Counted from the first letter of the stretch, positions 3,570 through 52,864 are shown. The stretch: 64,000 bases of DNA from a virus (IMGVR_UViG_3300012204_000008:32001-96000); one strand, 5' to 3'. Translations and numbers: made by a program. Notes: a model not told the origin generated them from the letters alone.

Positions 3570-4112
3570 ATGAACGTATTCACTAATAACGATGAAACAG
3601 CGACTCCGCTATTATGCCTCGATCTGGATGGCACGGTGCGGCAAGGCAAGGACGACGCCCTCGGACGGTTTGTAAATGGCCCCGAAGATGTGCGGGTGTT
3701 TCCCGAAGCCGTTGAGAGGATGCGACGCTGGAAGGCAGGTGGTGGCCGAATCATCGGCGTCAGCAATCAGGGCGGCATCGCATTGGGAATAGTCACACCA
3801 CAGGCTGTCGCGGCGGCGATGATGGAAACGCATCGGCAGACTGAGGAACTATTCGACAAGATTGCATGGTGTAGTCACCATCCGCGTGCATCTGATCCTG
3901 AGTGGGCGCGTTGCTGGTGCAGAAAGCCTTCGCCAGGACTGCTTATTGAGTCGGCTCTCATCCTCGCCTCAAAGTACAATGAGTTCTACCCACCGTATAT
4001 GGGACTCATGGTCGGCGATAGGTCCGAGGATCAGGAATGCGCTCGATTATCTGGATTTGATTTCCAGCACGCTGTTTTGTGGCGCACTCAAGCACATCAG
4101 GAATTATCGTGA
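3570..4112 (+). CDS. HAD phosphatase, GmhB/HisB (class IIIA) family
   Basis: DLDGT, VSNQGG, CSHH...CWCRKPSPG, VGDR..D motifs; GGAG SD. Confidence 0.85.
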   Translation: MNVFTNNDETATPLLCLDLDGTVRQGKDDALGRFVNGPEDVRVFPEAVERMRRWKAGGGRIIGVSNQGGIALGIVTPQAVAAAMMETHRQTEELFDKIAWCSHHPRASDPEWARCWCRKPSPGLLIESALILASKYNEFYPPYMGLMVGDRSEDQECARLSGFDFQHAVLWRTQAHQELS

Positions 4113-4261
4113 ATGTTTTATATGGAGAAGGTTACCTACGCGATTGTACTATCAACAAACAACGCCACTTATGTGGATGTGTAACTACTTTTGATATATG
4201 CCGTTGGAAATCCATCATCTTGTTATGTTGTGATGCCCATTCTGAGAATGGCTCCGTATGA
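4109..4261 (+). CDS. Small Cys-rich hypothetical protein
   Basis: GTGA overlap upstream and ATGA overlap downstream; 50 aa. Confidence 0.45.
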   Translation: MNVLYGEGYLRDCTINKQRHLCGCVTTFDICRWKSIILLCCDAHSENGSV

Positions 4262-5052
4262 GAGTTTTAATTTTAGGTTCTGGTCCAGCCGGGCTTATAG
4301 CTGCACAAGCGGCTAGTCAGCTTGGTATAGAAGACATAGTGATCCTAAGTAAGAAAAGGAAAAGTGAATTATTCGGCGCCCAGTATCTCCACGTCCCAAT
4401 TCCAGAAGCAACACAAACTGCTCCTGTTCAAATACGATACCGCCTCATTGGCTCACCAGAGCAATATCGCAAAAAGGTTTATGGTAATAACTGGAACGGT
4501 TTCGTTTCGCCAGAGGAATTGAATGGTAACCATTTAGCCTGGGACATACGCGAGACATACGACTTCTTGTGGAAGAAATTTGAAGGCGCAATTGAAGACG
4601 TCATTATTGACCCAATAGAAATTAATCATTCTCTATTGAGACTTAGGCCAGCTTTCACCTTTTCAACTATTCCTCTACCTTCTATCTGTATTAGATCATA
4701 TCATAAATTTCAGGCAGAATATATTTGGGCGATGGGTGATGCACCAGCTAGGGATCAAATTGTTCCAGTAAAGATGTTCTCAAATAGTGTTTTATGCAAT
4801 AGCCTTCCATCTCCTTCGTGGTATAGAGTCAGTAGAATTTTTGACCATTCAACTATAGAGTGGCCTTGGGGAGCGAAAGAAATAGGAGATTTACTTGACA
4901 AGGCTAGTCCTGTAACTAAGCCTCTTAAAACAGATTGTCATTGTTGGCCTAGTATCGTTAAAATTGGCAGATACGGTAAGTGGGAAAAAGGAGAATTAAG
5001 TCATACTGCATTTCGCATCGTAACAGAAAAGATAACGAATGGAAACGGATGA
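4258..5052 (+). CDS. FAD-dependent oxidoreductase (distantly UDP-galactopyranose mutase/protoporphyrinogen oxidase-like)
   Basis: N-terminal VLILGSGPAGL dinucleotide-binding motif, GAQYLH, STIP, C-terminal IGRYGKW. Confidence 0.75.
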   Translation: MRVLILGSGPAGLIAAQAASQLGIEDIVILSKKRKSELFGAQYLHVPIPEATQTAPVQIRYRLIGSPEQYRKKVYGNNWNGFVSPEELNGNHLAWDIRETYDFLWKKFEGAIEDVIIDPIEINHSLLRLRPAFTFSTIPLPSICIRSYHKFQAEYIWAMGDAPARDQIVPVKMFSNSVLCNSLPSPSWYRVSRIFDHSTIEWPWGAKEIGDLLDKASPVTKPLKTDCHCWPSIVKIGRYGKWEKGELSHTAFRIVTEKITNGNG

Positions 5053-5726
5053 ACAGAACTTATCCTCCCCGTAGCTCTACCTCTCATAACGGAATAAGAG
5101 AGATACTGCGGCCAGTATTTGGAATAGATCTAGACGGAACCCTAGGTGATTTTCACTCTCACTTTTTCAATTTTGCAGAGGGTTGGCTTGGCAAGAAGAT
5201 CGAGAGGAGATATCGTGGTGACGTCCCTATGACAAAGCATATAGGAATCAGTAAGGAACGTTATCGTAAGGTTAAGTTAGCTTATCGCCGTGGTGGCCTT
5301 AAACGTTCCATGCCAGTATATCCAGGCGCATGCGAACTTACATGCTCATTGCGAGAGAGGGGTGCCATTGTCATCATTTGTACCACTCGTCCTTATCTTC
5401 AAATTGATAATGTAGAGCCAGATACTATAGAATGGTTGCGTAGAAATCAAATACAATACGACGGCATAATATATGGCGAAAGGAAGTTTAAGGATCTAAA
5501 GAAGAGTTGGAATGGACAAATTGTAGCTGCCGTAGACGATTTACCGGAAATGATACTACAGGCTTATGACTGCGGGTTTCCAGGAATCATGATAGTTCGT
5601 AATCACAATATTCAATTTCACACAAAATGGAGAGAGAACAGCTTATACGAAGTTTCCAAACTATTGCATGAATTGTTAGACGAATGGGAGAAGGAAAATG
5701 AAGCTAATATTAGCACCAAGCGTTGA
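5049..5726 (+). CDS. HAD-superfamily 5'(3')-deoxyribonucleotidase-like protein
   Basis: GIDLDGT, ICTTRP, TIEWL, K, AVDDLP, HN motifs; ATG 5049 in ATGA overlap. Confidence 0.75.
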   Translation: MNRTYPPRSSTSHNGIREILRPVFGIDLDGTLGDFHSHFFNFAEGWLGKKIERRYRGDVPMTKHIGISKERYRKVKLAYRRGGLKRSMPVYPGACELTCSLRERGAIVIICTTRPYLQIDNVEPDTIEWLRRNQIQYDGIIYGERKFKDLKKSWNGQIVAAVDDLPEMILQAYDCGFPGIMIVRNHNIQFHTKWRENSLYEVSKLLHELLDEWEKENEANISTKR

Positions 5727-6021
5727 AGAACAGACAACCGACAGGCATAAACTTGCGATGCAAATGTTTCCTATCTTAGAAGAAGCTCTTAATCTTGCAA
5801 TGGAGAGACACAAGACGTATGGGAGTTCTTGGAAAAAACGAGGGTATATGGGCTCGATTTCTTGGATGGGAGCGAAAGTTGATAGGCTTCTAGGTATGCT
5901 TTGGACTGGAACTCCAAATCCCGATGAAAAGGTTATGAAAGATTGCGCATTAGATGAGATAAATTATTGCGTCTTTTTCGAGCTAAATCGTAGGGCTGGA
6001 AATAAATGGGGTCCGCAATGA
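5698..6021 (+). CDS. DUF1599 / nucleotide-modification-associated domain 1 (all-alpha NTP pyrophosphatase-like fold)
   Basis: ERHKTYGSSW...KVDRL...DCALDEINY pattern. Confidence 0.7.
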   Translation: MKLILAPSVEEQTTDRHKLAMQMFPILEEALNLAMERHKTYGSSWKKRGYMGSISWMGAKVDRLLGMLWTGTPNPDEKVMKDCALDEINYCVFFELNRRAGNKWGPQ

Positions 6022-6596
6022 TAGAGATAGACAGCCTAGAGAAAATTTGGGAGGACTATCAAGCCGACATCAACTTCACTCATCTAAGCGCTATTAGTAA
6101 TTTCGTTCCGGGAGAAGGGAATAAGAATGCCTCTCTCTTCTTTATTGGTGAGGCTCCAGGTGTATTGGAAAACGAACTTAAGCGTCCGTTCGTTGGTAAA
6201 AGCGGTAAACTTCTAACATCTTGCCTCCTTAGGATTGGCCTTGCAAGATCAGATGTCTGGATCACAAACGTTGTCAAATATAGGCCGCCAGGTAATAGAG
6301 ATCCTCATCCATTTGAGATTGAGGCTTCAACTCCTTTTCTTCGTAGAGAAATTAAGATAATCAAACCCAAAATTCTAGTGCCTCTTGGAAGAATAGCATT
6401 AGACCTTATAGTTCCAGGAGCAAGAATTGGTACTTCTCAAGGTCAATTGACATATACTGCCAACAACTTTCCTGTATTTCCTCTTTTTCATCCGTCATAT
6501 GTACTTCGTGGTGGGGAAAGGACCAAGGAGATGTATTTACAAAGTTTTGAAAGACTGCTACACTTGTTACAAGAGAAGGAAGTAAATGCAAACTAA
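6018..6596 (+). CDS. udg: Uracil-DNA glycosylase, family 4-like, lacking Fe-S cysteines
   Basis: GEAPG, RPFVGKSG, ITNVVKYRPPGNRDP, LGRIA, FHPSY; ATG 6018 in ATGA overlap. Confidence 0.85.
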   Translation: MIEIDSLEKIWEDYQADINFTHLSAISNFVPGEGNKNASLFFIGEAPGVLENELKRPFVGKSGKLLTSCLLRIGLARSDVWITNVVKYRPPGNRDPHPFEIEASTPFLRREIKIIKPKILVPLGRIALDLIVPGARIGTSQGQLTYTANNFPVFPLFHPSYVLRGGERTKEMYLQSFERLLHLLQEKEVNAN

Positions 6597-7185
6597 TGGG
6601 AAGCATCGTAAGCAGAAGTTCCTAGGTAGACAACTAGATAGAAGCCTTTGGAAAATAATTCTAGACGTTTTTATCCTTCTCGTATTTTTAACATTCGTTG
6701 TAATGACGATCGTAATGATCTCTCGTGATGGCTCTACAAAAAATAAGAACCAAACTCAGAAAGAGGAGAAAACATGGCGGGATTACTCCCCGAACATATC
6801 TACGACGCCGCCCTCAAGTCCGCCTATCGTCTTGGACCAACAAGACTTGCAAGAAGTCAAATGGAAGAGGGAATTGACGCAGCCTACCCATACATCGCAG
6901 AGTTCCTCAAAAAGAAAATTATTGAAAGAATCTACGCAGAAGAATATAACAAAAGAGTCAGTTACTCTAACCAAACCCCTGACAGAATTGAAGCGTATCG
7001 AGCAGGGCTTAGACGTGCCATCCACGTCGTTTCAGACTCCCTCGAGTGTGATTGTATCAGATCAATTGAAGCCACAGGAGGAATTAAATACTCCGGATAT
7101 TGTGGGCTCCATAACTGAAGAGCCAATCGAAGAGTCAAGTTGTCACGATCGCGGCAAGCATCTAGGAAAGGAAAAGAATGGCTAA
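6586..7185 (+). CDS. Single-pass membrane protein with Ser/Thr/Pro-rich extracellular tail
   Basis: Basic N-terminus GKHRK, one ~22-aa hydrophobic helix, low-complexity tail; overlaps both neighbours. Confidence 0.55.
   Translation: MQTNGKHRKQKFLGRQLDRSLWKIILDVFILLVFLTFVVMTIVMISRDGSTKNKNQTQKEEKTWRDYSPNISTTPPSSPPIVLDQQDLQEVKWKRELTQPTHTSQSSSKRKLLKESTQKNITKESVTLTKPLTELKRIEQGLDVPSTSFQTPSSVIVSDQLKPQEELNTPDIVGSITEEPIEESSCHDRGKHLGKEKNG
6774..7118 (+). CDS. Hypothetical protein nested in another frame of 6586..7185
   Basis: Strong SD GAGGAG shortly before ATG; 114 aa of normal globular composition, C-terminal CDC...CGLH. Confidence 0.5.
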   Translation: MAGLLPEHIYDAALKSAYRLGPTRLARSQMEEGIDAAYPYIAEFLKKKIIERIYAEEYNKRVSYSNQTPDRIEAYRAGLRRAIHVVSDSLECDCIRSIEATGGIKYSGYCGLHN

Positions 7186-7330
7186 AAGTAGACGATCATG
7201 TGATTGGTGTCAAAACAATAGAGCTACATTGACCGTAGTAAGAAAGGAAAGATCGGAGTTCAGGGTTTGCCCGTCTTGCGTTGAAATGGGACTTAAGATT
7301 AAATATCAAATAGTTGGAGAGGAAAGATAA
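7178..7330 (+). CDS. Small zinc-ribbon protein (50 aa, not in ORF track)
   Basis: MAKSRRSCDWC...VCPSC...; AAGGA SD; fills the gap exactly up to the next ATG at 7331. Confidence 0.6.
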   Translation: MAKSRRSCDWCQNNRATLTVVRKERSEFRVCPSCVEMGLKIKYQIVGEER

Positions 7331-7702
7331 ATGAAGAAAGATACACTTGTATTTAAAGTTCTTCAAGCGTTCAAGAGCTCAGAAACTGGTGTAGTTGACA
7401 AGTTAGAGCTAATGGCTGAGTTGGGTCTGAGTTCAACTCAAGTTGAAAATGCAATATATCATCTCAAAAGAAAATGTGTAGAACCAATAACCTATAATAA
7501 AGAAAAAAGAGCTTGGGAATATCATGGAATTGAAAAGTTAGTTCCTACTGCCTCGCCTATCGTAAGTGGTACTGGCGACATGTATGATAAGAAACCTTCT
7601 CGCCAAAAGGTTTTCTTTGTAGGGGAAACTTCACTTGGAGTACCAATTTTTGAGTATCATGGAAATCTATACTTGGGTCACCGCGTTTACGAAGACGATT
7701 AA
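7331..7702 (+). CDS. Winged helix-turn-helix DNA-binding protein
   Basis: ELMAELGLSSTQVENAIYHLK helix-turn-helix followed by a beta wing; GAGG SD. Confidence 0.55.
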   Translation: MKKDTLVFKVLQAFKSSETGVVDKLELMAELGLSSTQVENAIYHLKRKCVEPITYNKEKRAWEYHGIEKLVPTASPIVSGTGDMYDKKPSRQKVFFVGETSLGVPIFEYHGNLYLGHRVYEDD

Positions 7703-7711
7703 GCTGGTAAA

Positions 7712-10700
7712 ATGGGAGACTTTGTAAGTCTACATCATCACAGCACATATAGCTACTTAGACGGATATGCGACTCCAGAAGAGCACATCATAGCAGCCGC
7801 CAATTTAGAAATGCCGGCTATGGCCCTTACCGAGCATGGAAATATATCGAGCCATGTCAAATTAGAGCAGGCGGCAAATAAGCACGGTATCAAGCCTCTT
7901 TTTGGAATTGAGGCTTATACAGGAAAGGTGGATGAAGATCGATCAAGATGGAAATGGCATCTAACCATACTTGCAATGAACCAGGAAGGATATCGTAATT
8001 TACTAAGAATAACCTCAAAGGGTTGGGCAGAAGGGTTTTTCTATGAACCTACGATATCAGGGGAAATGCTGGCTGAGCACAACGAAGGGCTCATTGTCCT
8101 TTCGGGTTGCAGCGGGTCCAAAATGGCCTGCGATCTCCTTGGAGGTAAGGGAGTACCTCCCCACGAAGTTGATTATGGATCTGCCATTGCCACGGCCAAT
8201 AAATTCCGCGATTTATTTGGAGATCGATATTACCTTGAGACGCAGGCTTTTCCTGAGTTAGAGAGAACTAGAAGTATTAATCAAGCATGGGAGAGAGTTT
8301 CTGAAGAGACTGGTATTCCGATTGTTGCAACCGGAGATGTTCATTATCCGCGCCCTAAAGATGGGGAAATGCAAGTCATCCTCCATGCAATTGATCGGGG
8401 CGGCCGCAATAACACAGTAGAAAAACAGTTGCAGTCGTGGGGATATGACATAAAGTTAACGAACTTCCGCGACGAAATTGTACTTCAGAAATTAATAGCT
8501 ACTGGTCTTAGTTCTCTTGCGGCAGAACAGGCAATTGCCAATACCGGGCTCATCGCAGACCGCTGTAATGTTACCCTGCCGAAGCTAAAAGAGCTACAGT
8601 TTCCTAGTAAAACACCAAACGAAGAACTTTTTAGGCAGTGGTTACGAAAAGGATGGAATTATCGTGGATTTGATAATCTGATTGGTGAAGAAAGAGGGCG
8701 ATACCTGCGTAGACTTAAGCATGAAATTTCTCTAATTGTAGAAAAGGGATTCATTGATTACTTCCTCGTTATTAGTGACGTCGTACGTTTTGCCAAACGC
8801 GAGGGTATCCCTGTCGGTCCAGCTCGAGGAAGCGCGGCCGGTAGTTTAGCCTGTTTTCTCCTCCGTATCACAGAAGTAAATCCAATGCTATTTTCGAACC
8901 TTTTGTTTGAAAGATTCATTGATAAAAACAGGCACGATATTCCAGATATTGATCTTGATTTCGATGATGAGCAACGTTGGAAGATTCGCCAATATCTCTG
9001 CGATCAGTATGGGGAAGATAGAGTAGGAAACATTGGAACCTTTGTAAAATACAAAGGTCGTAATTCTCTAATTGATGTAGCTCGCGTTCATAAAGTTCCA
9101 GTATGGGCTTTAGAGGGAGTAAAAGAAAAACTAATTGAGAGATCTTCGGGAGATTTGCGGGCTAATGCCACAATTGAAGACACAATTGAGATGTTCCCAG
9201 ACGTAAAAAAGATCTTTGAGCAGTTTCCAGAACTTTATCTCGCTAAACGCCTTGAAGGAAATCTTAGGGGATTCAGTGTTCATGCCGCCGGGCTGGTTGT
9301 AGCCAATGAACCACTTACCAATTCGGTAGCTGTCTATACTCGCATTGATAGTAAAACTGGTAATCGCGGTGAAGTTCTAAGTATTGACAAGTATGATGCC
9401 GAGTATCTTAACGCCCTGAAGATCGACTTTCTTGGTCTCAAAACAATGGGTGTAATTAGAAGATGCCTTGAATTAACTGGTATGAGCCTTGAGGAATTGT
9501 ATAAACTCCCATTAGACGACCCAGAAGTTTACGCAGGTTTCAAACGCAACGAAGTAATCGGTATCTTCCAGTTTGATGGTCGGGCAATGCGTTCAGTTAA
9601 TCGTGAAGTTAAGCCAGATAACTTTTCTGAATTAGCTGACATCAATGCTCTATCTCGTCCCGGTCCCCTCCATTCAGGTGCCGCAGCCGAGTATATAATG
9701 GTCAAACATAGAAAGAAAGAGCAAGAAGATCTCGGCGAAGTAGTAGCTCGTATTACTGAAGACAGCAACGGACAAATTGTTTATCAAGAATCTATATTAC
9801 AAGTAGTTAGGGAATTGGGCGGCTTCAGTTGGGAAGAGGCTGCCAGGATTCGTAAGCTGATTTCTAAGAAGCAAGGTGAACAAGCCTTCCAACAAATGAG
9901 AATGAAATTTATTAAGGGCGCAATAGGAAATGATTTAGAGGAAAGAATTGCAGATAAAGTATGGAAGCAACTTGTTACTGCGGGCGCGTATGCGTTCAAC
10001 AGAGCACATTCGATAAGCTATAGTATCATTGCTTACTGGACAATGTGGATCAAACAACACTTTCCGCTACAATTCTACTGTGCTTCGTTACAAAAGTACG
10101 ACCCAAAGACGAAAGGATTTGACCTCTTAAAGGAAGCTAAGAAGAAGGAAATTCCTGTCCTACCACCCCATCCTATCAGGAGTGAAATCACCTGGTCAAT
10201 TAACAAGGAACTTGGAGGACTTCAAGCTGGTATTACACAAATTCCAGGAATTGGTGAAAAAATCGCAACTGCGATGATAGACTACAGAGAGGCTGGAATT
10301 TCTGAGATAAAAGAATGGAAGGATTATTTACCAGTTCGTGGTATTGGGCCAAAAACAATTGAGTCCTTAGAAGAATTTTCAACAACTGAAGACCCGTTTG
10401 GCCTAGACCTCCTTACCAAAACCCTAGAAAAAGTTCGCGCATGGCTATGGGAAAATGGTGACGCAGAAGGGCTTCCTTTCCCAACTTCTACAGCAGAAGA
10501 TATTCCATATAGTGATATTGCAGGTCAACATGTTTGGCTCGGAACTGTCCGAGAAATTAACCTTAAGGATGTGATAGAATTACATAGATCGCGAACAGGA
10601 GAGGAATTAAATCCAGCCACTATCAAACAACCAGAATATCTCAATTATGCAGTATTAACCTGCGAGGATCAAACTGGTCCATTAGTAATAACTGTCCATA

Positions 10701-10852
10701 GATGGAACGGTCTTTATGAGAAATATAAGAAAGAGATATGGAATATCAAAAAAGATAGAGATTTGATATTGGTAAATGGATATAAGAGAAAGGAATTTCG
10801 CAGAGCCATTTATGCAAATAACATATGGATAATAAATACGGGGGAAATATGA
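7712..10852 (+). CDS. dnaE: DNA polymerase III alpha subunit (family C)
   Basis: PHP motifs LHHHSTYSYLDG, ALTEHGN, TGDVHY; GPARGSAAGS; catalytic PDIDLDF and KIDFLGL; YAFNRAHS; HhH and OB domains. Confidence 0.97.
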   Translation: MGDFVSLHHHSTYSYLDGYATPEEHIIAAANLEMPAMALTEHGNISSHVKLEQAANKHGIKPLFGIEAYTGKVDEDRSRWKWHLTILAMNQEGYRNLLRITSKGWAEGFFYEPTISGEMLAEHNEGLIVLSGCSGSKMACDLLGGKGVPPHEVDYGSAIATANKFRDLFGDRYYLETQAFPELERTRSINQAWERVSEETGIPIVATGDVHYPRPKDGEMQVILHAIDRGGRNNTVEKQLQSWGYDIKLTNFRDEIVLQKLIATGLSSLAAEQAIANTGLIADRCNVTLPKLKELQFPSKTPNEELFRQWLRKGWNYRGFDNLIGEERGRYLRRLKHEISLIVEKGFIDYFLVISDVVRFAKREGIPVGPARGSAAGSLACFLLRITEVNPMLFSNLLFERFIDKNRHDIPDIDLDFDDEQRWKIRQYLCDQYGEDRVGNIGTFVKYKGRNSLIDVARVHKVPVWALEGVKEKLIERSSGDLRANATIEDTIEMFPDVKKIFEQFPELYLAKRLEGNLRGFSVHAAGLVVANEPLTNSVAVYTRIDSKTGNRGEVLSIDKYDAEYLNALKIDFLGLKTMGVIRRCLELTGMSLEELYKLPLDDPEVYAGFKRNEVIGIFQFDGRAMRSVNREVKPDNFSELADINALSRPGPLHSGAAAEYIMVKHRKKEQEDLGEVVARITEDSNGQIVYQESILQVVRELGGFSWEEAARIRKLISKKQGEQAFQQMRMKFIKGAIGNDLEERIADKVWKQLVTAGAYAFNRAHSISYSIIAYWTMWIKQHFPLQFYCASLQKYDPKTKGFDLLKEAKKKEIPVLPPHPIRSEITWSINKELGGLQAGITQIPGIGEKIATAMIDYREAGISEIKEWKDYLPVRGIGPKTIESLEEFSTTEDPFGLDLLTKTLEKVRAWLWENGDAEGLPFPTSTAEDIPYSDIAGQHVWLGTVREINLKDVIELHRSRTGEELNPATIKQPEYLNYAVLTCEDQTGPLVITVHRWNGLYEKYKKEIWNIKKDRDLILVNGYKRKEFRRAIYANNIWIINTGEI

Positions 10853-11511
10853 AAGTTTGCACTATTTGCAAAGAATTAAAAGAAGATGTGGAATTCTATC
10901 ACACCCCAAGAAATAAAAATGGATTAACAAGTCGATGCAAAAAATGTCACAGTGAGATGGTGAAACAGTGTTCCAAAAATCTTAAGGCCTTTATGGTGAA
11001 CGGATACGGCGGTAAATGTAATTGCTGCTTTGAAGAGAATATTAAATTTCTAACTATAGATCATGTAGACGGTGGAGGAAGGTCTCATAGAAAAGAGTTG
11101 GGAAGAAAAAGAGTTTACTCTATAGCAATTCAAAATAATTTTCCTGAGGAATATCAGATATTGTGTTACAATTGCAACATTGCAAGATCTTACCATGGGC
11201 ATGGAATATGTCCGCATAAGAAAATTCCAGAAACTAGATATAAAAACCACAATTTAATAAAGATATGGGAAAAAGTTTTAGAGGCGTATGGAGGAAAATG
11301 TGAGTGTTGTTCCGAGATAAATGAATTTTTTCTTTCGATTGATCATATTGATCCATCCGATAAAAATAGAAAATTGAAGGGTGGTATACATCTATATAGG
11401 AGACTTATTAGAGAAAATTTTCCTAACGATGTTAGATTGTTATGCTATAACTGTAATTGTGCGAGGTCCAAAAATTATGGAATATGCCCTCATAAATACA
11501 TAGAAGGATAG
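10849..11511 (+). CDS. Free-standing HNH endonuclease with two tandem HNH domains
   Basis: N-terminal CxxC...CxxC, then two copies of YGGKCxCC...LxIDH...LCYNCN...GICPHK; AT-rich. Confidence 0.85.
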   Translation: MKVCTICKELKEDVEFYHTPRNKNGLTSRCKKCHSEMVKQCSKNLKAFMVNGYGGKCNCCFEENIKFLTIDHVDGGGRSHRKELGRKRVYSIAIQNNFPEEYQILCYNCNIARSYHGHGICPHKKIPETRYKNHNLIKIWEKVLEAYGGKCECCSEINEFFLSIDHIDPSDKNRKLKGGIHLYRRLIRENFPNDVRLLCYNCNCARSKNYGICPHKYIEG

Positions 11512-11519
11512 GAGATTCT

Positions 11520-12089
11520 ATGAAGCTAGAGCTCATTGAAAAAATGGACAATGTATACATGAAGTACAATCGCGCTCTAAGAGGAATTGAGATCAAGGAA
11601 GAGATAGATGAGATAGCGATCCTTTTTGAGAATAGAGAATTACTTGGACAATTTGTTGCTAACGCTGGGGAAGATTGGAACCATTTCGGCTCAGCTAGAG
11701 ATCTAGTATATACACGGCCAATGGATACTTCTTACCGTGTAATGTATGAGTTTTTTAATGTTGGAGGCAGACCATATAGGGTAGAAGCAATGGCGCTTAT
11801 TGATGGGCATTCGCCAGTCCATGCCTCTGCTACAGCCTTATTTCCTTATATGCCAAGTCCAGAATTGAAAATGGAATCACCACTTATCATTCATGCAAGT
11901 TGGAAATCCAAGAGTCGTTCATTGTACGGAGAAACCCTATGGCTTTTAGGGGTCAATCATTTTGAATTAGCGCAACAGTGCAAATCAGATTATGGAGAGT
12001 TCTGTTATTATAACCATCCACATTTAGGTTTCTCACCACCAATATACTTCAAGCCAAGACTAAACATGAGGGATGAAATTTATGGATAA
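11520..12089 (+). CDS. Putative VOC/glyoxalase-fold protein
   Basis: IDEIAILF / RVEAM...GHSP / IIHASWK / YGEFCYY parallel the strands of methylmalonyl-CoA-epimerase-like VOC proteins; AGGAG SD. Confidence 0.45.
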   Translation: MKLELIEKMDNVYMKYNRALRGIEIKEEIDEIAILFENRELLGQFVANAGEDWNHFGSARDLVYTRPMDTSYRVMYEFFNVGGRPYRVEAMALIDGHSPVHASATALFPYMPSPELKMESPLIIHASWKSKSRSLYGETLWLLGVNHFELAQQCKSDYGEFCYYNHPHLGFSPPIYFKPRLNMRDEIYG

Positions 12090-12786
12090 AGAAAAAGTTC
12101 TAGTTGTAGGTGCAAGACAAAATTCTCTAGGAGAAGCTGTTGCAAAACTCCTAAAAGAAGGAGACAATTTTTTTGAAGTTGTTACAGCGGGCCTAAATTA
12201 TGGAGGTCTTCAACCTCATGAGGATTATTCGCTAGATATTACCTCTTCTAATTCTTCATTGGCTCTAATTCTGAAAGAAATTCAGCCGAGGATCATCGTT
12301 TGTACGACCGGAATCAACGAACCATTTTCAATCTTAAAAGATGGTTTTATCGGTAACATTTGGAATCAAATGGAAATTAATTATTGTGGTGTCATGAATT
12401 TACTAAGCTGCTGCCTCAAGATAGACCTAGATCTTTCTCAGTTCGTAGCTGTCAGTAGTAATAGCGCCCATATTCCACGTAGTGAAAGTCTCGGATACTG
12501 TGCAAGTAAGGCTGCATTGAGCATGGGAATAAGAGTTGCAGCCAGAGAGGTGGCAAAAAATCTTAATTCACCTCCCTCGATCTATTGTTATGAGTTTGGT
12601 TTGCTTGAGGGTACGCCCATGACCAAAAAATTAGAAGAGAACTACGGATCTAATCTCACGAGAATGGTTGAATTACCAAGAGGGATTCCATTGGAGTTCG
12701 CGGCCATACATATTTACAACAATATTAGATATGGTGCAGAAGAACTTAACGGGGTCTGTCTCAGAATCGACAATGGAGAGATATAA
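12073..12786 (+). CDS. Short-chain dehydrogenase/reductase (SDR)
   Basis: VLVVGA..SLG Rossmann strand, AVSSNSA catalytic Ser, YCASK (YxxxK). Confidence 0.85.
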   Translation: MKFMDKEKVLVVGARQNSLGEAVAKLLKEGDNFFEVVTAGLNYGGLQPHEDYSLDITSSNSSLALILKEIQPRIIVCTTGINEPFSILKDGFIGNIWNQMEINYCGVMNLLSCCLKIDLDLSQFVAVSSNSAHIPRSESLGYCASKAALSMGIRVAAREVAKNLNSPPSIYCYEFGLLEGTPMTKKLEENYGSNLTRMVELPRGIPLEFAAIHIYNNIRYGAEELNGVCLRIDNGEI

Positions 12787-14796
12787 ATGAAACAAGAAAT
12801 TAGTAAGTTTGCTGATATCGCAATGTACCAGTCAGAAGAGATGCCAGATAATACAAAAAGTGCCCCAAAAGTTTACCTTCTCAACATGACAAGGGATCCC
12901 CTAGGATCAATTGCCGCAGCTTGCCAAATGTATGAGGGGAAGGTTATCAGAGATCTCTCACAAGTAACAGACGAACAAAGAAAGCGATATTTTGAACAAG
13001 TTCAAAAGACACATCTGCAAGCACCATTTGAATTTGTGGACTTCCATTTCATGATCGAGGGAGTAACTCGCGCCTTTACACACCAAATCGTCCGTCAACG
13101 TACGGCCTGTCTCTCTGGAGATACAGAAATTTATACAGAAAGAAAAGATAGACGTAGAACTATTGCTCAATTATATGATCAATGGAACAAAGGGGGGAAT
13201 CTTCGAGGTCCTTTAAGCAGAATAAAAATTAGAACTGTTACAGATGAAGGGATGATTGTTTATAGGACCATAGGGGCAGTATATCAAAATGGAATAAAGG
13301 ATGTTTGGGAAGTTAAAACTCATGATGGGAAAACTATAAAAACAACCGAAGATCATTTGTTATGGAGACCGAATAAAGAGTGGTCTGAGTTGCAAGATCT
13401 AAAAGTGGGAGATGAAATAGTAGCCAATGGCGTAGAGTTAGTCAAAGATGAGAAATGGCTTCACGATAAAATTGAGCAAGGTCTAAATTACGCACAAATC
13501 GCAAGGCTATCAAATTGTTCCAAACCCACCATCAAGAAATACTGCATAAGATATAATTTGTTTCCAAAGTCAAATGTAGATCTCGCAGCAGATGAGACAT
13601 GGTTAAAACAAAAAGTTAGCGAAGGATTTTCAACTAAACAAATAGCTGAGTTAGCTGATTGCTCAACTTCTCATGTGAAAAAATATCGTAGAGTCTACGA
13701 TATCCATGGACAAGGTGGTGTTCCAGTAGGTTTCAAACATTCTGAAGAATCCAAGATGAATATGAGAGGACCTAAGCCGAAATGGTCAGAGGAAGCTAAA
13801 CAAAAATTCAGCAAATGGTGTTTAGAAAATAGGGGAGGGAAAAACCCAGAAAATTATTCTGGAATGGATCCAGGACATAGAGTAGCCCAGGTCTTGTTCA
13901 ATCACCTTAAAGAAAAAGGCTGTGCTTGGTGCGGTGAAAACCATGGAAGAATGCAATTGGCACATTTAGACGGAAATCCAATGAATAATAAGCCAGGAAA
14001 TGTACAAGCTATGTGCAATCCATGCCATCATGCGATGGATACAGGATCTCTGCCAAGAAAAACATATCCGACAAAGATAGTTTCAATCTCTTATATCGGA
14101 AAGGAGATGACTTATGATATAGAAATGAATGGTGAATATCATAGATTTGTTGCTAATGGCTTAGTTGTTCATAATTGCTATGCCCAAGAGAGTCTAAGGT
14201 TTGCCGTTAAGAATAATTTACGTGAAGAGGTTAGGTTGCCACCTTCTCTTGCTAACACCACTTACGATGCAGAAGAACTAGACGAAGACAGCTATACCCT
14301 GGCCAGCAATGAACAGAGAATGAGAATGGATTGGGAACACGCTATTGACCAGATGGAGCAGATGTACCACAAGCTCATTGACAAAGGAATGCCAGCAGAG
14401 GACGCACGTGGCCTGCTGCCACATTCTGTGACCACACGGCTGCACTACAAGACCAACCTACGTGGGCTTCTAGAGCACCTTGGTAATCGTTTATGCACGC
14501 AAGCACAATTCGAATGGCGTTCAGTGGCCTCTGGAATCGTGCAAGCTATTAGAGAGTTTCCTTGCGAGAAAGAGTTTCGTTGGCAGCAAGAAACACTGTC
14601 GGAGATTTTTCGACCAGTCTGTTATCAATTAGGGCATTGTGCCTTCATGGCTGACTTTGATAGATACTGCTCTATTCGAGACCGTGTAGAAGAGCATCAC
14701 AAGAAGGGAGAACCCTCTACTATTTGGCTCGATATCCACCCGTCAGAATGGTTGAATAACCCAACAGGAGCTAGGGAGAAAAGAAATGATCTGTAA
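12787..14796 (+). CDS. thyX: Flavin-dependent thymidylate synthase (ThyX) homolog, intein-containing (313 aa after splicing)
   Basis: APFEF, EGVTRAFTHQIVRQRTA|CYAQESLRF, PAEDARGLLP, NLRGL, RLCTQAQFEWR. Confidence 0.9.
   Translation: MKQEISKFADIAMYQSEEMPDNTKSAPKVYLLNMTRDPLGSIAAACQMYEGKVIRDLSQVTDEQRKRYFEQVQKTHLQAPFEFVDFHFMIEGVTRAFTHQIVRQRTACLSGDTEIYTERKDRRRTIAQLYDQWNKGGNLRGPLSRIKIRTVTDEGMIVYRTIGAVYQNGIKDVWEVKTHDGKTIKTTEDHLLWRPNKEWSELQDLKVGDEIVANGVELVKDEKWLHDKIEQGLNYAQIARLSNCSKPTIKKYCIRYNLFPKSNVDLAADETWLKQKVSEGFSTKQIAELADCSTSHVKKYRRVYDIHGQGGVPVGFKHSEESKMNMRGPKPKWSEEAKQKFSKWCLENRGGKNPENYSGMDPGHRVAQVLFNHLKEKGCAWCGENHGRMQLAHLDGNPMNNKPGNVQAMCNPCHHAMDTGSLPRKTYPTKIVSISYIGKEMTYDIEMNGEYHRFVANGLVVHNCYAQESLRFAVKNNLREEVRLPPSLANTTYDAEELDEDSYTLASNEQRMRMDWEHAIDQMEQMYHKLIDKGMPAEDARGLLPHSVTTRLHYKTNLRGLLEHLGNRLCTQAQFEWRSVASGIVQAIREFPCEKEFRWQQETLSEIFRPVCYQLGHCAFMADFDRYCSIRDRVEEHHKKGEPSTIWLDIHPSEWLNNPTGAREKRNDL
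13108..14175 (+). mobile_element. Intein (356 aa) with HTH x2, NUMOD3 and HNH endonuclease
   Basis: Starts CLSGDTEI, block B TTEDH, block F TYDIEM, ends VVHN with +1 Cys; internal GFKHSEESK and CAWC...AHLDGNPMNN...CNPCH; AT-rich. Confidence 0.93.
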
Positions 14797-14898: not shown

Positions 14899-15483
14899 AT
14901 GTTTAAGTCATGGGAAATTAGAGGGAGCGATCCGTGCTTAGTAATTAACTCATTCGATCCAGGTGTAACTACTGGATGGTCTATACATAGGATACCGATA
15001 AAGGAGTTAGTGTCTGAAGGTTTCAAAGCAAGCATACATTGCGAGTCCTTCTGTTGGAATTCAGGGGAGATATACAAATTCCGCAAAGAGAATCAAACGA
15101 TAGCAGATATGCTAAAGGTGTCTAGATTCGCTTGGTCACTGGCAGAGGAAGAAAATGGAGACGTTTTCGTTATAATACTAGAAGACTTTATACTAGACAC
15201 ATTAGATTCCTCCCGTGACCTACTTTCCCCCGTTAGAATAAATGCTAAGTTTGACTACGCCATGAAAGATTCCGGTATCTGTATCGTTATGCAACTAGCT
15301 AGCGAAGCTATGTGGACAGTGACAGATGCCCGTCTTAAATCGTGGGGACTGTATAAGGCCGGTTTACAACATGCGAGAGACGCCCAACGCCACGCCATCC
15401 TATTTGCACGAAAATACGCCTCAAAAGTTGATCTCAGAAATAAGATAGATGCTTATAATCACAATGGTCATGGTGCTCATTAA
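14899..15483 (+). CDS. RuvC-like Holliday junction resolvase
   Basis: SFDPGVTTGW, ILEDF, HARDAQRH RNase H-fold acidic motifs; AAGGAG SD. Confidence 0.75.
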   Translation: MFKSWEIRGSDPCLVINSFDPGVTTGWSIHRIPIKELVSEGFKASIHCESFCWNSGEIYKFRKENQTIADMLKVSRFAWSLAEEENGDVFVIILEDFILDTLDSSRDLLSPVRINAKFDYAMKDSGICIVMQLASEAMWTVTDARLKSWGLYKAGLQHARDAQRHAILFARKYASKVDLRNKIDAYNHNGHGAH

Positions 15484-18412: not shown

Positions 18413-18739
18413 ATGAGTGACTGGTTTATACTTCTTCTTATGGTCGGATTTGTCTATAGGGTTACTAGACTTATTACTGTAGATAAATTTCCACCCATTA
18501 AATTCCTACGAGAAAAAATAGCCGGGAAAGAGAACTTACAAGAGTGGGAGAAAGATCCTAAGCTCTCGTGGAGTCCAGAATGGTTAGGAGATTTGGTTTC
18601 CTGCTATTGGTGCGCAAGCGGCTGGGTTTCAATAGGAACAGTTCTGATCACTGATCACTATGGAAATGTTCCAATGCCAGGATTATCACTGTTTGCGATC
18701 TGGGCGGCTGGGGCACTGATGGTAGACAAATTAGGGTAA
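18413..18739 (+). CDS. DUF1360-like membrane protein
   Basis: YRVTRLITVDKFPP and LVSCYWCASGW with hydrophobic helices; between terL and portal. Confidence 0.75.
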   Translation: MSDWFILLLMVGFVYRVTRLITVDKFPPIKFLREKIAGKENLQEWEKDPKLSWSPEWLGDLVSCYWCASGWVSIGTVLITDHYGNVPMPGLSLFAIWAAGALMVDKLG

Positions 18740-23910: not shown

Positions 23911-25665
23911 ATGCCTGATGAGCTGGTCACAGTTCCGCAGGATCTTACGCTGGTCAGTGACGAAGATCTCGCCCAGCTCGAGGCTAAGGTCACTGCCGAG
24001 TTTACAAGGATTAACGAAGGGGACGTTTCCCCTGAGAGCTTGGAGTATATGCTCCAGCTCGCAGAAGACCTAGACCGCATTCGCTCTGAGAATTCGGCTA
24101 GAGACCAGCGGCGTACTGAGGCCGCTAAGCTCGCCGATCTCAAGATGCACGAGCAGAAAAAGGCTCTTGAGGCTAGGGTCAAAGGCGTCTCTGCTGATCC
24201 GGTTACTAGGGACGAATCTGAAGTCTCTAAGGAATACGCCGGAGCTATCGCCAAGGCCGCCGCTGAGGGTGCTACCGCTGCGCTTGTGGCTGCGCTTGGT
24301 GACGACAAACGCGGTGGCCGTGACTTCTCTGCCATTAGTGAAAAAGCAACGAAGTCTCTTTCCGCGGCTCGCCGGCACGCGCCTTCTGTCAATCTTCCGA
24401 AGGCCAAGCTTCAGGTTCAGGCCGGAGTTGACATTCCCGGTATTGCTCGCGGTGGCGAGCTCAGTACTCTTGAGTCCGTTACGGACGCCTTTCACCGTCG
24501 GGCAAAGGGTATGCCGGACAGCCGTGGACAGCTTCGTGAGGAACTGGTTTGTACGATCAAGAACCAGTTTGAGCACACAGTAGATGACCGCACTTCGCCT
24601 GCTCAGGTTGAAGAGCTTTTCAGTTTCTTGCGTTCACGTGACAAGCAGGAAGCTCTCGTCGCTGGTGGTGGTTGGTGTGCGCCTTCAGAAATTCGTTATG
24701 ACTTCTTTAATGTCGCTTGTGAGTCTGGTCTTATTGACCTTCCCACCTTCGGTGTGAGCCGTGGTGGTATTCGTTATCCGGTTAGCCCTAGCATTGCAGA
24801 TGCCTTCGGCTCCAACGCTCTCGCTCCATTCAACGTTTCATTTACCAACACTTCAGTTCCGTGGCTTTGGACAGAAGCTGATGACATTCTGACTATCACC
24901 GGTACTACCAACAAGCCAACGATGCGAGTGCCGTGCCCGACGTTCTCTGAGAACCGGTTGGAATGCTACGGCGTCACGCTCACTGCCGGTAACCTCACGG
25001 ACGACGCCTATCCTGAGGCTACTCAGAACACGCTGCGTTTGCTGATGTCAGCCCACGCACACGCCATGAATGCCCGTATCATTTCTTTGATGGTCACTAA
25101 TAGCACGGCAGCAATCACTGGTATCTCCGGTACGAACCCTGTCTACCAGCAGGTTCTTGACGGTGTGGACATGGCCGCTACTGACTACCGCGCTCGTTAT
25201 GCCATGTGTGACGATGATGTTCTTGAGCTCGTCGTTCCTTATTGGCTCAAGGCCGTTATCCGTGCGGACCTTGCCTGGCGTGCTGGCACTGCAGACCTTC
25301 TCTCTGTCAGTGACGCTCAGATTGTTGGATACTTCGCTGACAGAAACGTTCGTCCGCAGTTTATCAATGACTGGCAGGTTAGAGGTTCTGGCCAGTTCGG
25401 TGGTACTACTGCGGTGGTTGCGTGGCCTACGAGCGTTAACGTCATGCTCTATGCCGCTGGTACCTTCCTGCTTGGTAATGGCCTCAGCCTTGACCTTGGT
25501 GTTATCCGTGACTCAGTGCTAAACGCAGAGAACGACTTTACAGCCGCCTGGTCTGAGGAATGCCATCTCCTCGCGAGGGTTGGTCACGAGTCTCGTCTCT
25601 ACACCATTGGCTTCAACGTTAAGGGTGCGACTTCTGCCACTCTTACTGACAACGCAAAGGTCTAA
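23911..25665 (+). CDS. Major capsid (hexamer) protein with N-terminal coiled-coil scaffold region
   Basis: GGAGGAG SD before ATG 23911; coiled-coil N-terminus; LVAGGGWCAPSEIRYD, LDLGVIRDS.LN..ND motifs; high-expression codon bias. Confidence 0.9.
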   Translation: MPDELVTVPQDLTLVSDEDLAQLEAKVTAEFTRINEGDVSPESLEYMLQLAEDLDRIRSENSARDQRRTEAAKLADLKMHEQKKALEARVKGVSADPVTRDESEVSKEYAGAIAKAAAEGATAALVAALGDDKRGGRDFSAISEKATKSLSAARRHAPSVNLPKAKLQVQAGVDIPGIARGGELSTLESVTDAFHRRAKGMPDSRGQLREELVCTIKNQFEHTVDDRTSPAQVEELFSFLRSRDKQEALVAGGGWCAPSEIRYDFFNVACESGLIDLPTFGVSRGGIRYPVSPSIADAFGSNALAPFNVSFTNTSVPWLWTEADDILTITGTTNKPTMRVPCPTFSENRLECYGVTLTAGNLTDDAYPEATQNTLRLLMSAHAHAMNARIISLMVTNSTAAITGISGTNPVYQQVLDGVDMAATDYRARYAMCDDDVLELVVPYWLKAVIRADLAWRAGTADLLSVSDAQIVGYFADRNVRPQFINDWQVRGSGQFGGTTAVVAWPTSVNVMLYAAGTFLLGNGLSLDLGVIRDSVLNAENDFTAAWSEECHLLARVGHESRLYTIGFNVKGATSATLTDNAKV

Positions 25666-25718
25666 TTAGTCTCAATCGGGGTGGTAACTGTAATAGTCGG
25701 AAGGGAGTGTGAAGGTCG

Positions 25719-26594
25719 ATGGCCGGTGCGCGGCAGATAGTGGATGGCCCGACCTTCACCCCCTCCAGACTTGGACTACTTGATGTAGTACAGTTTCCAA
25801 CTCCCGCCGGACCGCATTGGCAAAATGGAATTACGTGGGCTTCCACTTGTGTAACTGGCGGTACAACTTACGACGAGTGCATCACCGTTACTGGAACTGG
25901 CAGCCCACCCGCTCCCGCCGCATTTGCGGATAACGTAGATTGGAACAATAGAGGAGCTACCCCGTTCACTATTTACACAGAATTTGACTGCTCCCCGGTT
26001 GGTTTCTTTGAAGATGCACAAAAACTAGCCGAGGAGATGCTAGCTAAGAGCGAAAGCTGGCAAGTAGAGCAAGCGGTATGGACAGGGACGGCAGGGGGTA
26101 CGGCAAACGCCGTCTGGCCGCATCTTGCAGCTTTCACGGCAGCAGTAGATTCTCAGAGCATAACACTACAATCTCCTGCCGTAACAGGTGGGCTCCTCAA
26201 GCCATCTAGGGCACTTGGGGCAGTGGAAGCCATACTAGCTGATTGTTACCACGGACAAGGCGTTATCCACATACCACTGGACATTCTGAATACTTTTATT
26301 CAGAACGGAATGATGTTCCGACAGTCCGATGGATCTTATTTAACTCCCTCGGGAAATCTCGTAGTGGCTGGCTCTGGTTATCCAGGAACTAGTCCTCAGG
26401 GTGCCGCGCCTGCCGCCAATACGATGTGGATTTATGCTACTGGCGCTATTTTTGCTTATCGTAGTGCCGTTAGAATTCATTCTCCACGCGAGTCACTTGA
26501 CCGTGCAGAGAATACAGTAAAAATGATCGCTCAGCGTACATACGTCCTTGGTTGGGACTGCTGTCACGCTGGTGTTTTGGTAGACCTGGCTTAG
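25719..26594 (+). CDS. Second capsid protein (pentamer-type HK97-fold protein)
   Basis: HWQNG...C, PFTIY..FDCS, VEQAVW, TPSGN.VV.G.GY, WIYATG motifs; directly follows the capsid gene. Confidence 0.65.
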   Translation: MAGARQIVDGPTFTPSRLGLLDVVQFPTPAGPHWQNGITWASTCVTGGTTYDECITVTGTGSPPAPAAFADNVDWNNRGATPFTIYTEFDCSPVGFFEDAQKLAEEMLAKSESWQVEQAVWTGTAGGTANAVWPHLAAFTAAVDSQSITLQSPAVTGGLLKPSRALGAVEAILADCYHGQGVIHIPLDILNTFIQNGMMFRQSDGSYLTPSGNLVVAGSGYPGTSPQGAAPAANTMWIYATGAIFAYRSAVRIHSPRESLDRAENTVKMIAQRTYVLGWDCCHAGVLVDLA

Positions 26595-26612
26595 TAACGG
26601 AAAGGTAGAGCT

Positions 26613-27290
26613 ATGGCATCGATATGTGGAGCACCGATCAAAGGCTCGATGCTTCGTGTCACTAAGCTGGACGTTTGTGGAGTGCCAGTTACGGGAGCCT
26701 CTGGTCTCGTCTATACCACTAAGGGTTTTGTCCAGGTGCAGATGGCACCGCAGTATGAGGACGGCGAAGAGTTCTTCGAGCGTACTGCCGACGGTACCCT
26801 CTGCGTGAACCAGAAAGACGACCCGATTCTTAAGCGTTTCCAGCTTACGATCGACATGTGTGAAATTGACCCCGATGGTATTTCATACGTGCTGTCGGCT
26901 CGAGAACTTGCCACTACTGGTCCTGTCAGCGGTTATGGTTTCGCCATGAGCGAAGGAAAACCAACAAACCGCTTTGGATTGGAAGTATGGCAGGAAGTGG
27001 CTGGCTCCGGTGCCTGCGACGCTTCTGGTGTTCAGCGTTACATCTATAACGTCTGGCCGAATGTTGGCGCATCTCGTATTGGTAACTACACGATTGAGAA
27101 CGGTAGATCAACACTTCAGTTCATAGCCGAGACTAAGGCAGCTAGCTCCTTGTGGGGTAATGGCCCAGGAGCGGCTAGCTGGCTACCGGCTACAGGTACG
27201 ACGACTCTCTTGTCCACTGAACACTGGGCTTGGAATATCACGACTGTCGCGCCGCCGACTGCCCAGTGTGGCGCTGGAATAGTTGCGTAA
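26613..27290 (+). CDS. Major tail protein
   Basis: RVTKLD.CG.P, EDGEEF...ADG.LC, FGLEVW; high-expression codon bias; position. Confidence 0.8.
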   Translation: MASICGAPIKGSMLRVTKLDVCGVPVTGASGLVYTTKGFVQVQMAPQYEDGEEFFERTADGTLCVNQKDDPILKRFQLTIDMCEIDPDGISYVLSARELATTGPVSGYGFAMSEGKPTNRFGLEVWQEVAGSGACDASGVQRYIYNVWPNVGASRIGNYTIENGRSTLQFIAETKAASSLWGNGPGAASWLPATGTTTLLSTEHWAWNITTVAPPTAQCGAGIVA

Positions 27291-27309
27291 GGAATGGAGT
27301 TATGGGTAA

Positions 27310-27627
27310 ATGATCCCCATATTGCAAGCCACTAAACATTGGTGGTGTCCAAACTGTAACTTGACCGATGTGACGCATGAAGTTCGACCGCATACTCGTA
27401 TGCACTCTTGCAATGGACTTTATGGATTAACATCGCCAATGGTTCCAGTTGGACAAAAAGCTAAATCCATAATGCATGAGCCGGATGATTACGTGAAACA
27501 TGAAAACGTAACTTACGCAGAAGTGGACAATAAGTCACGTCCTGTTATGAATATCGTCACGACTCGTGACAACGGCGAAGATTGCACGGTGTTTGCACCA
27601 TGCGCAACGATCAGGTCGGAGGGCTGA
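27310..27627 (+). CDS. Hypothetical Cys/His phage protein
   Basis: WWCPNC...PHTRMHSC; TGATG coupling to next gene. Confidence 0.7.
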   Translation: MIPILQATKHWWCPNCNLTDVTHEVRPHTRMHSCNGLYGLTSPMVPVGQKAKSIMHEPDDYVKHENVTYAEVDNKSRPVMNIVTTRDNGEDCTVFAPCATIRSEG

Positions 27628-28594: not shown

Positions 28595-28608
28595 TCAATA
28601 GGAGTTTC

Positions 28609-31275
<2,667 letters not shown>

Positions 31276-31292
31276 TGCAACGGTGGTAGCCA

Positions 31293-52201: not shown

Positions 52202-52213
52202 TTGGAGTAGCAA

Positions 52214-52855: not shown

Positions 52856-52864
52856 AGTCATAGT

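Follow-up and report, generated by a model that had tools for sequence, protein, structure and literature searches.

We analysed a 64,000-nucleotide stretch of viral DNA (IMGVR_UViG_3300012204_000008:32001-96000; the whole stretch is called the window below) and, within it, a gene cassette at 3570-14796 that surrounds a phage-encoded DnaE and ends in a gene for a ThyX-like protein. The window is a segment of a tailed-phage genome with terminase, structural and lysis genes, every gene on the + strand and a GC content of about 0.43. From 4258 to 14796 the cassette open reading frames (ORFs), all on the + strand, abut, overlap or lie no more than 10 nucleotides apart; examples are the junctions at 5049 (against a stop at 5052), 5698/5726, 6006/6021, 6586/6596, 10825/10852, 12073/12089 and 12786/12787. 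The gene before them, for an HAD-IIIA phosphatase, ends at 4112, 145 nucleotides upstream of 4258. An initial annotation had read this run as a candidate pathway for pyrimidine hypermodification, and its gene calls were all reproduced (HAD-IIIA phosphatase, FAD protein, NT5C-like HAD, DUF1599 protein, family-4 uracil-DNA glycosylase (UDG), DnaE, VOC-fold protein, SDR and intein-split ThyX). To these we add an HNH endonuclease gene (10825-11511) and two orphan ORFs (6586-7185 and 7331-7702). The 11-kb stretch gave no match by megablast against 50,697 phage records.

The ThyX-like protein is encoded at 12787-14796 and is interrupted after residue 107 by an intein. The N-extein (12787-13107, residues 1-107) ends in the variant motif ...THQIVRQRTA and is followed by a 356-residue intein (13108-14175, residues 108-463) with HTH and HNH-type homing-endonuclease parts (PF14890, E 1.5e-11; TIGR01445 and TIGR01443), whose boundary residues are intact (Cys1, His-Asn, then Cys+1). 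The 206-residue C-extein (14176-14796) carries CYAQESLRF, RLCTQAQ and a C-terminal Cys motif, PVCYQLGHCAFMADFDRYCSIR. PF02511 recognised the Thy1 domain (E 3.3e-32; 112 bits, cut-off 24.8). The TIGR02170 equivalog model gave 81.3 bits, under its cut-off of 87.9; this is the score of the unspliced precursor and may have been lowered by the intein. The spliced protein reads RQRTACYAQESLRF where canonical ThyX reads RHRxxSxxxxSxRY, that is, H79Q, S83C and Y91F.

A profile of 23 intein-free homologues aligned with residues 36-204 of Thermotoga maritima ThyX (E 2e-19), the numbering of which is used here. The substitutions extend across a set of 139 clade members, made up of 120 database proteins, the motif-bearing sequences of our homologue alignment (A1) and the spliced window protein. 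Position 79 is Gln in 131 of the 139 (Asn, Gly or Thr in the others) and never His; position 91 is Phe in 137, otherwise Ala, and never Tyr; position 178 is Gln in 136, Asp in one and never His. At position 53, Leu or Ile was found in 121 of 122 scored sequences, Thr in one and His in none, and profile alignment to 1kq4 and 4gtf puts Leu at the position of the folate-stacking His53. The columns that bind deoxyuridine monophosphate (dUMP) and flavin adenine dinucleotide (FAD) are invariant or nearly so (Q75, R78, R80, S88, R90, R147, R165 and R174). Cys176 is present in 135 of the 139, and a C-terminal extension with three further conserved Cys in 129. Every one of these clade traits (L53, Q79, F91, Q178, C176 and the C-terminal Cys motif) occurs in the window protein.

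His53 of canonical ThyX forms a stack with the folate pterin and a hydrogen bond with Tyr91; Tyr91 and Ser88 have been called strictly conserved, and mutation of Tyr91 slows flavin oxidation about 1000-fold (PMC11940539). The altered motifs noticed in the initial annotation are thus a clade-wide feature and fall at residues whose mutation cripples canonical catalysis. The clade resembles canonical ThyX (T. maritima TM0449; PDB 1kq4, 4gt9) in its Thy1 fold family, its FAD/dUMP arginines, Ser88 and Gln75, but differs in the replacement of His53, His79, Tyr91 and His178, in a C-terminal extension of about 90 residues with conserved Cys, in an obligatory flavoprotein neighbor and in a score under the TIGR02170 equivalog cut-off. 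Because of this division into retained and replaced residues, the nucleotide and flavin sites look intact and the carbon-donor site looks rebuilt. The four conserved Cys, one located two residues past the dUMP-activating Arg174 and three in the C-terminal extension, suggest a metal or Fe-S site near the flavin. At least 1686 proteins belong to the clade (E <= 1e-3), relatives are encoded on at least 541 IMG/VR contigs, and the longest contig among the best 120 matches is about 82 kb. Judged from sequence, the ThyX-like proteins are a distinct, large, phage-only clade.

The flavoprotein (4258-5052, 264 residues) matches phrog_8720 (E 1.6e-81) and, at its N terminus, the Pfam family FAD_binding_3. 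Its structure was modelled with high confidence (predicted local distance difference test score, pLDDT, 96) as a two-domain GR2-type protein, composed of an FAD Rossmann domain and a beta-sheet domain. The nearest fold, by a modest margin, is UDP-galactopyranose mutase (UGM). Full UGM enzymes have about 365-510 residues, whereas the window protein and its homologues (252-285 residues) lack the helical domain, in which the mobile loop and the uridine-binding residues of the mutases are located. Because of the modest margin and the missing helical domain, we describe the modelled protein as UGM-like in fold and do not call it a mutase. The residues C144, H149, C227 and C229 do not vary among 30 homologues (alignment A3), and C144/H149/C227-x-C229 form a possible metal site. 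A search of related loci with the single flavoprotein sequence returned no relatives.

DnaE, a DNA polymerase III alpha subunit with PHP, NTPase, finger and HhH domains (7712-10852; Pfam E values from 7e-66 down), is 42-62% identical to the DnaE of 39 IMG/VR contigs and 48% identical to actinophage DnaE. Synteny was already visible in the set of 39 contigs, which had been selected by DnaE. To avoid that selection, 80 loci were fetched by ThyX alignment and scored with hidden Markov models built from our alignments; counts were taken from the 33 of these with at least 9 kb on either side of ThyX. DnaE was present in all 33 and the flavoprotein in 32; in the one locus that lacks it, the expected place of the gene is just off the sequence edge. 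The NT5C-like HAD was found in 26 loci, DUF1599 in 22, the RuvC-like gene in 18 and the SDR in 17; VOC (5), UDG (2) and HAD-IIIA (0) were rarer, although VOC was present in all nine of the DnaE-nearest loci whose sequence reaches its position. There are at least four gene orders: in some the flavoprotein gene is directly upstream of ThyX, and in others DnaE lies between the two. The core is therefore ThyX-like protein, flavoprotein and DnaE, and the remaining genes are frequent or rare accessories. The initial annotation had expected the flavoprotein, VOC, SDR and DUF1599 genes to travel with this ThyX; the flavoprotein does, through several gene orders, while DUF1599, SDR and VOC do so partly or seldom. 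Its VOC, SDR, UDG and GmhB-like HAD are better regarded as accessory than as core members of a pathway.

In cultured phages, the numbers of the two proteins agree genus by genus. ThyX-like proteins and actinophage-type flavoproteins number 46 and 46 in Gordonia phages, 36 and 36 in Microbacterium phages and 28 and 32 in Mycobacterium phages; ThyX-like proteins and Pbunavirus-type flavoproteins number 289 and 292 in Pseudomonas phages, 27 and 27 in Escherichia phages and 6 and 6 in Xanthomonas phages. The cassette of ThyX-like protein and UGM-like flavoprotein thus defined is carried by actinophage clusters, Pbunavirus, Wifcevirus and IMG/VR contigs. The block 'oxidoreductase - nucleotide phosphohydrolase - DnaE - ThyX-like' of actinobacteriophages has the same gene families and order as the window and is carried by Mycobacterium cluster D (PLot, PBI1), Arthrobacter Wollypog, Streptomyces Yara and Gibson, Microbacterium Krampus and Gordonia cluster DV. 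Identities to the window are 42-45% for the flavoprotein, 48% for DnaE and 35-54% for the ThyX-like exteins. By tblastn, the actinobacteriophage block is without DUF1599, UDG, VOC, HAD-IIIA and the intein, and an SDR occurs in PLot only. To the carriers of the cassette the window adds one of low GC, in which ThyX is split by an intein and three accessory enzymes are present (VOC, UDG and the GmhB-like HAD).

A link to known DNA chemistry comes from the Pbunaviruses. In the PB1-like phages F8 and 14-1, about one quarter of the thymidine in virion DNA is replaced by a derivative, of 362 Da in F8 and 390 Da in 14-1, that bears a polyol or sugar-alcohol-like group and was placed in a TG context through restriction mapping (PMC12191111, the 2025 preprint of Yee et al.). 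According to its authors the PB1-like family is without known modification genes, and the genes behind the mark were not assigned (PMC12191111). Pbunavirus SN encodes a ThyX with the features of the clade (ORF59; hhalign probability 99.9, about 29-31% identity), which reads RTR, ETSRA, RLCVRTQ and HCVATGSCAF and has no His53, His79 or Tyr91. ORF65 is an FAD protein of 333 residues that is distantly related to the window flavoprotein over its first 140 residues (hhalign probability 85-92), and ORF57 is a PNKP-type HAD that has an additional domain; ORF57, ORF59 and ORF65 all lie beside DnaE. ORF66 was also considered as a relative of the flavoprotein and showed no relation. SN has MazG in place of DUF1599 and no detectable counterpart of the SDR, VOC or UDG; for NT5C, DUF1599, SDR, VOC, HAD-IIIA and the 123-residue protein, no SN counterpart exceeded 50% hhalign probability. 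No paper in our literature searches connected ThyX-like genes, those of Pbunavirus included, with DNA modification.

The replication proteins of F8 and 14-1 are 93-99% identical, whereas the N-terminal half of ORF66 is replaced, ORF57 is 80% identical and ORF70 57%. In both phages ORF66 adjoins the flavoprotein gene and ORF57, the HAD, adjoins ThyX. This comparison, of two phages only, gives a weak hint that the side chain is set by genes beside the core. By our arithmetic, 362 Da fits C14H22N2O9, the formula of both 5-(tetrahydroxypentyl)-deoxyuridine and a 5-hydroxymethyl-deoxyuridine (5-hmdU) ether-linked to a tetritol. The mass alone does not fix the linkage, because both nucleosides have this one formula.

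The accessory genes of the cassette were assigned as follows. The HAD-IIIA phosphatase (3570-4112; GmhB-, histidinol-phosphatase- or PNK-3'-phosphatase-like) matched NCBIfam NF006506 (E 6e-19) and TIGR01656 (E 3e-17) with scores under the curated cut-offs; its DxDGT, SNQ, RKP and GD motifs were read from the sequence. No homologue occurs in the 39 and 80 related loci, and the gene was seen only in this phage. The NT5C-like HAD of the 5'(3')-deoxyribonucleotidase family (5049-5726; PF06941, E 6e-9; phrog_415 and phrog_420) has a DLDGT motif, its start at 5049 being placed by an ATGA overlap. The 107-residue helical protein at 5698-6021, a probable divergent DUF1599/Nmad1 member, had no Pfam match of its own at E values up to 10. 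PF07659 was matched by 5 of its 12 aligned homologues (best 1.2e-5), and the Atlas placed it by features (0.92) and structure (template-modelling (TM) score 0.72) with clusters in which 74-100% of members contain DUF1599; a PDB sequence search with its profile found nothing. The UDG (6006-6596) scored 153 bits with TIGR00758 (cut-off 125.3) and matched PF03167 (E 2e-32), with motifs A (GEAPG) and B (HPS) present. A 4Fe-4S cluster with four Cys is a trait of family-4 UDGs; the window enzyme is without these cysteines, having one Cys in 196 residues.

Family-model scans gave no sequence-family match for the 189-residue VOC protein (11520-12089), the assignment of which comes from a structure model (pLDDT 90) with paired beta-alpha-beta-beta-beta modules. 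Foldseek matched this model to 3gm5, a methylmalonyl-CoA epimerase (E 1.9e-6, TM 0.52/0.63), and to 6bu2, 1jc4 and 2qh0 (TM 0.45-0.67 by target), pointing to a glyoxalase- or epimerase-like fold. E89, H101 and H125 are invariant in the sequence columns of 10 homologues and are candidates for the His/Glu metal site of the VOC superfamily. The SDR (12073-12786; PF00106, E 1e-7; phrog_3142, FabG-like) has a YCASK motif, and its stop abuts the start of ThyX.

Taken together, the reading that we place first, at even odds, is that this cassette makes a non-canonical 5-substituted deoxyuridine nucleotide, a thymidine hypermodification that would end in virion DNA. The hypermodification proposed in the initial annotation is partly supported, in its core by the co-occurrence, the altered ThyX and the polyol thymidine of F8 and 14-1; the parts assigned to VOC, SDR, UDG and the GmhB-like HAD fell to accessory status. 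For this phage we infer the carbon donor, the product, the role of each accessory enzyme and the presence of the modification in its DNA as follows. Once its intein is spliced out, the ThyX-like protein would bind FAD and dUMP and would not use methylene-tetrahydrofolate in the canonical way. Instead, N5 of the reduced flavin would capture a different donor with a carbonyl group, plausibly an aldose or its phosphate, which would be transferred to C5 of dUMP. The SDR, the VOC protein and the flavoprotein may tailor or supply the side chain, and an HAD phosphatase could strip phosphate. DnaE would incorporate the product, and UDG would keep plain uracil out of the DNA. The dTMP- or dTTP-depleting roles proposed earlier for the HAD and DUF1599 are guesses.

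The most specific form of this proposal is that the ThyX-like protein and the UGM-like flavoprotein join the carbonyl carbon of an aldose (or its phosphate) to dUMP C5 through a flavin N5 carbinolamine, with reduction to a 5-(polyhydroxyalkyl)-deoxyuridylate that SDR, VOC and HAD trim and DnaE incorporates. In this full detail we consider it unlikely. Free formaldehyde can serve T. maritima ThyX in the methylation of dUMP, by way of a carbinolamine at flavin N5, and the authors liken the adduct to the flavin-galactose adduct of UGM (PMC8316439). For the 5-(4',5'-dihydroxypentyl)uracil of phage SP-15, labelling from ribose and synthesis as a nucleotide have been reported, and a very divergent Thy1-family gene, gp130, directly follows an SDR gene, gp129 (PMC5977210). 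Because of the formaldehyde-using ThyX and the SP-15 precedent taken together, an aldose-type carbonyl in the rebuilt donor pocket is a reasonable proposal. The initial annotation had guessed at a 5-(hydroxyalkyl)uracil, which is close to the polyol-type thymidine derivative of F8 and 14-1 (PMC12191111), phages with the same type of ThyX; for the phage studied here such a product would be an extrapolation.

SP-15 and the window share a hydroxyalkyl group on uracil C5 (proposed for the window), a Thy1-family gene after an SDR, a phage UDG and a phage polymerase. They differ in that the SP-15 polymerase is of family A, and the likeness concerns gene classes and chemistry and does not amount to orthology. 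SP-15 gp9, tried as a clade member, falls outside (hhalign probability 42% over 74 columns), and gp129 has only family-level similarity to the window SDR. The ThyA-based pathways (T4 hydroxymethylcytosine, SPO1 hydroxymethyluracil and the 5-hydroxycytosine of RB69 and DLP3) likewise use a thymidylate-synthase homologue to alter C5 of a deoxypyrimidine monophosphate, together with nucleotide-pool enzymes (PMC13326640, PMC8989533). In contrast to the window, where the enzyme is of the ThyX fold and is partnered by a flavoprotein and where no kinase turned up, these pathways rely on the unrelated ThyA fold and encode a deoxynucleoside monophosphate (dNMP) kinase and dNTPases. About 55 window ORFs were scanned, structural ORFs at about 19-35 kb and a 1524-residue ORF at 38458-43032 being excluded. 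They gave no Pfam match to a ThyA-type dUMP hydroxymethylase, a 5-hmdU DNA kinase or aGPT-Pplase, and, as in the initial annotation, no dNMP kinase.

Several observations weigh against hypermodification. The Pbunavirus link consists of a ThyX-like protein at about 29-31% identity and a weak flavoprotein match, and SP-15 gp130 was rejected as a clade member (hhalign probability 2%). The Pbunavirus mark is partial and TG-specific, which argues for at least one step on DNA and not for mere replacement in the nucleotide pool. In addition to the dNMP kinase, dUTPase and dCMP deaminase were not found in the scanned ORFs. The dinucleotide statistics of the window are ordinary (TG/CA odds 1.04, GA/TC 1.06). 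We know of no DNA modification reported in cultured actinophage carriers, cluster D mycobacteriophages among them, although they have been handled for a long time. Finally, related phages share the genes of a replication module by descent, and the counts are not independent events; a functional link is better argued from gene orders that change and from carriers among both actinobacterial and proteobacterial phages than from the counts. As regards base composition, no abnormal GA/TC- or TG/CA-free run was found within the window, and its longest AT-, TA- and AA/TT-free runs lie inside the GC-rich structural region (AT-poor runs at about 28-32 kb), where GC is 0.50-0.58 (24000-34000) against 0.37-0.45 in the replication block.

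The alternative that survives best is ordinary nucleotide supply, in which a thymidylate synthase with drifted motifs has its FAD re-reduced by the flavoprotein, and the HADs, UDG, SDR, VOC and DUF1599 are housekeeping or moron genes linked by descent. We regard this as somewhat unlikely. The PF02511 match (E 3e-32) and the retained dUMP/FAD arginines fit such an enzyme, and depositors have annotated homologues as 'ThyX-like thymidylate synthase', but the protein scores below the TIGR02170 cut-off (81.3 < 87.9, though the intein split may depress the score). The His53/Tyr91 pair is lost throughout the clade, while Tyr91 mutants of canonical ThyX are about 1000-fold slower (PMC11940539). A partner reductase could feed a redox or metal centre bound by the four added Cys; canonical ThyX, however, needs no partner, and the flavoprotein has been kept through changes in gene order in both actinobacterial and proteobacterial phages. 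The sporadic distribution of VOC, UDG and HAD-IIIA and the lack of a dNMP kinase among the ORFs scanned also fit simple supply; the modified T of Pbunaviruses that carry the ThyX-flavoprotein pair (PMC12191111) speaks against it.

It is distinctly unlikely, in our assessment, that the ThyX-like protein makes only a small handle, 5-hydroxy- or 5-hydroxymethyl-dUMP, from flavin and O2 or from an unreduced methylene, and that transferases decorate the DNA after replication. There is a precedent in a ThyA homologue, switched to flavin and O2, whose product, 5-hydroxy-dCMP, is later glycosylated (PMC13326640). A reaction without folate would agree with the loss of the folate-stacking His, the TG-specific and partial Pbunavirus mark fits decoration of DNA, and the 362 Da formula equals that of 5-hmdU ether-linked to a tetritol. 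The scanned SN ORFs near the cassette, on the other hand, gave no Pfam match to sugar or glycosyltransferase families and none to the window cassette profiles. The window itself encodes an RmlB-like dehydratase, four GT2-like proteins and an NDP-hexose C-methyltransferase (at 51-56 and 62-64 kb) that might act in this way, but they are 36 kb off, beside lysis genes, and may serve the cell envelope; nor was a 5-hmdU DNA kinase or aGPT-Pplase type of match obtained among the scanned ORFs. A free product that stays out of DNA (an inhibitor, host-defence decoy or cofactor) would suit HAD nucleotidases that release nucleoside, the missing dNMP kinase and the fact that ThyX homologues act in nucleoside-antibiotic pathways (PolB, the ThyX-like UMP methylase of polyoxin biosynthesis), but is very improbable given the replicase linkage in 33 of 33 loci, the confinement of the clade to phage-sized contigs among the best 120 matches and the modified T in Pbunavirus virion DNA.

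Some other genes in and around the cassette probably stand outside any hypermodification pathway. Between UDG and DnaE (6586-7702, + strand) are a low-complexity membrane protein (6586-7185), a 50-residue ORF and a 123-residue protein (7331-7702); these orphans have no family matches and no homologues in related loci, and are probably not part of the pathway. The free-standing HNH/endonuclease VII-like nuclease (10825-11511; two repeats; phrog_1035 and phrog_2633) overlaps the stop of DnaE, and lies between DnaE and VOC. As none of the related loci has it, it is probably a homing endonuclease, a likely mobile element and not a pathway enzyme. In relatives, intein-like insertions lie within DnaE (L009:12752, L019:5310 and L022:12317), whereas here the intein is in ThyX, and in Wollypog an HNH gene splits DnaE. 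The replication block seems to be a recurrent target of mobile elements. Downstream of ThyX, a phrog_1981 protein (14899-15483, + strand; E 1.9e-38), homologous to genes annotated as RuvC-like resolvases, is syntenic in relatives and has a 33% tblastn match inside Wollypog gp75, which carries that annotation.

Farther away, sugar genes at 51188-56510 and 62212-63939 encode an RmlB-like NDP-sugar 4,6-dehydratase, four small GT2-like glycosyltransferases and an NDP-hexose C-methyltransferase with a zinc-binding N-domain. Located beside the lysis genes, they could decorate either a hydroxylated DNA base or the host envelope. The lysin (48610-49728) has an Rv2525c-like glycoside-hydrolase domain, typical of actinobacteriophage endolysins. 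Because this actinophage-type lysin occurs together with actinophage-like replication genes, the window hints at a low-GC actinobacterial host despite its GC content of 43%. A DUF1360 membrane protein (18413-18739) lies directly past the large terminase gene.

Hypermodifications of phage DNA decide whether it is cut by restriction enzymes, CRISPR and other nucleases, and they complicate sequencing. To our knowledge, all worked-out pyrimidine pathways start from an enzyme of the ThyA fold, and in the literature that we searched this cassette is not described as a pathway. A ThyX-fold pathway with a flavoprotein partner would, if true, be a new chemical route. It would provide candidate genes for the sugar-alcohol thymidines of the therapeutic PB1-like Pseudomonas phages and for the fifty-year-old question of SP-15 dihydroxypentyluracil. 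Were the aldose-joining route itself correct, it would supply the missing biosynthesis of the 362 and 390 Da thymidines of Pbunavirus, explain hydroxypentyluracil of the SP-15 type by analogy and be the first carbon-carbon glycation by a flavoenzyme of a thymidylate-synthase fold. Hundreds of viral contigs carry the core genes, as do readily cultured phages of Mycobacterium smegmatis, Gordonia, Microbacterium, E. coli and Pseudomonas.

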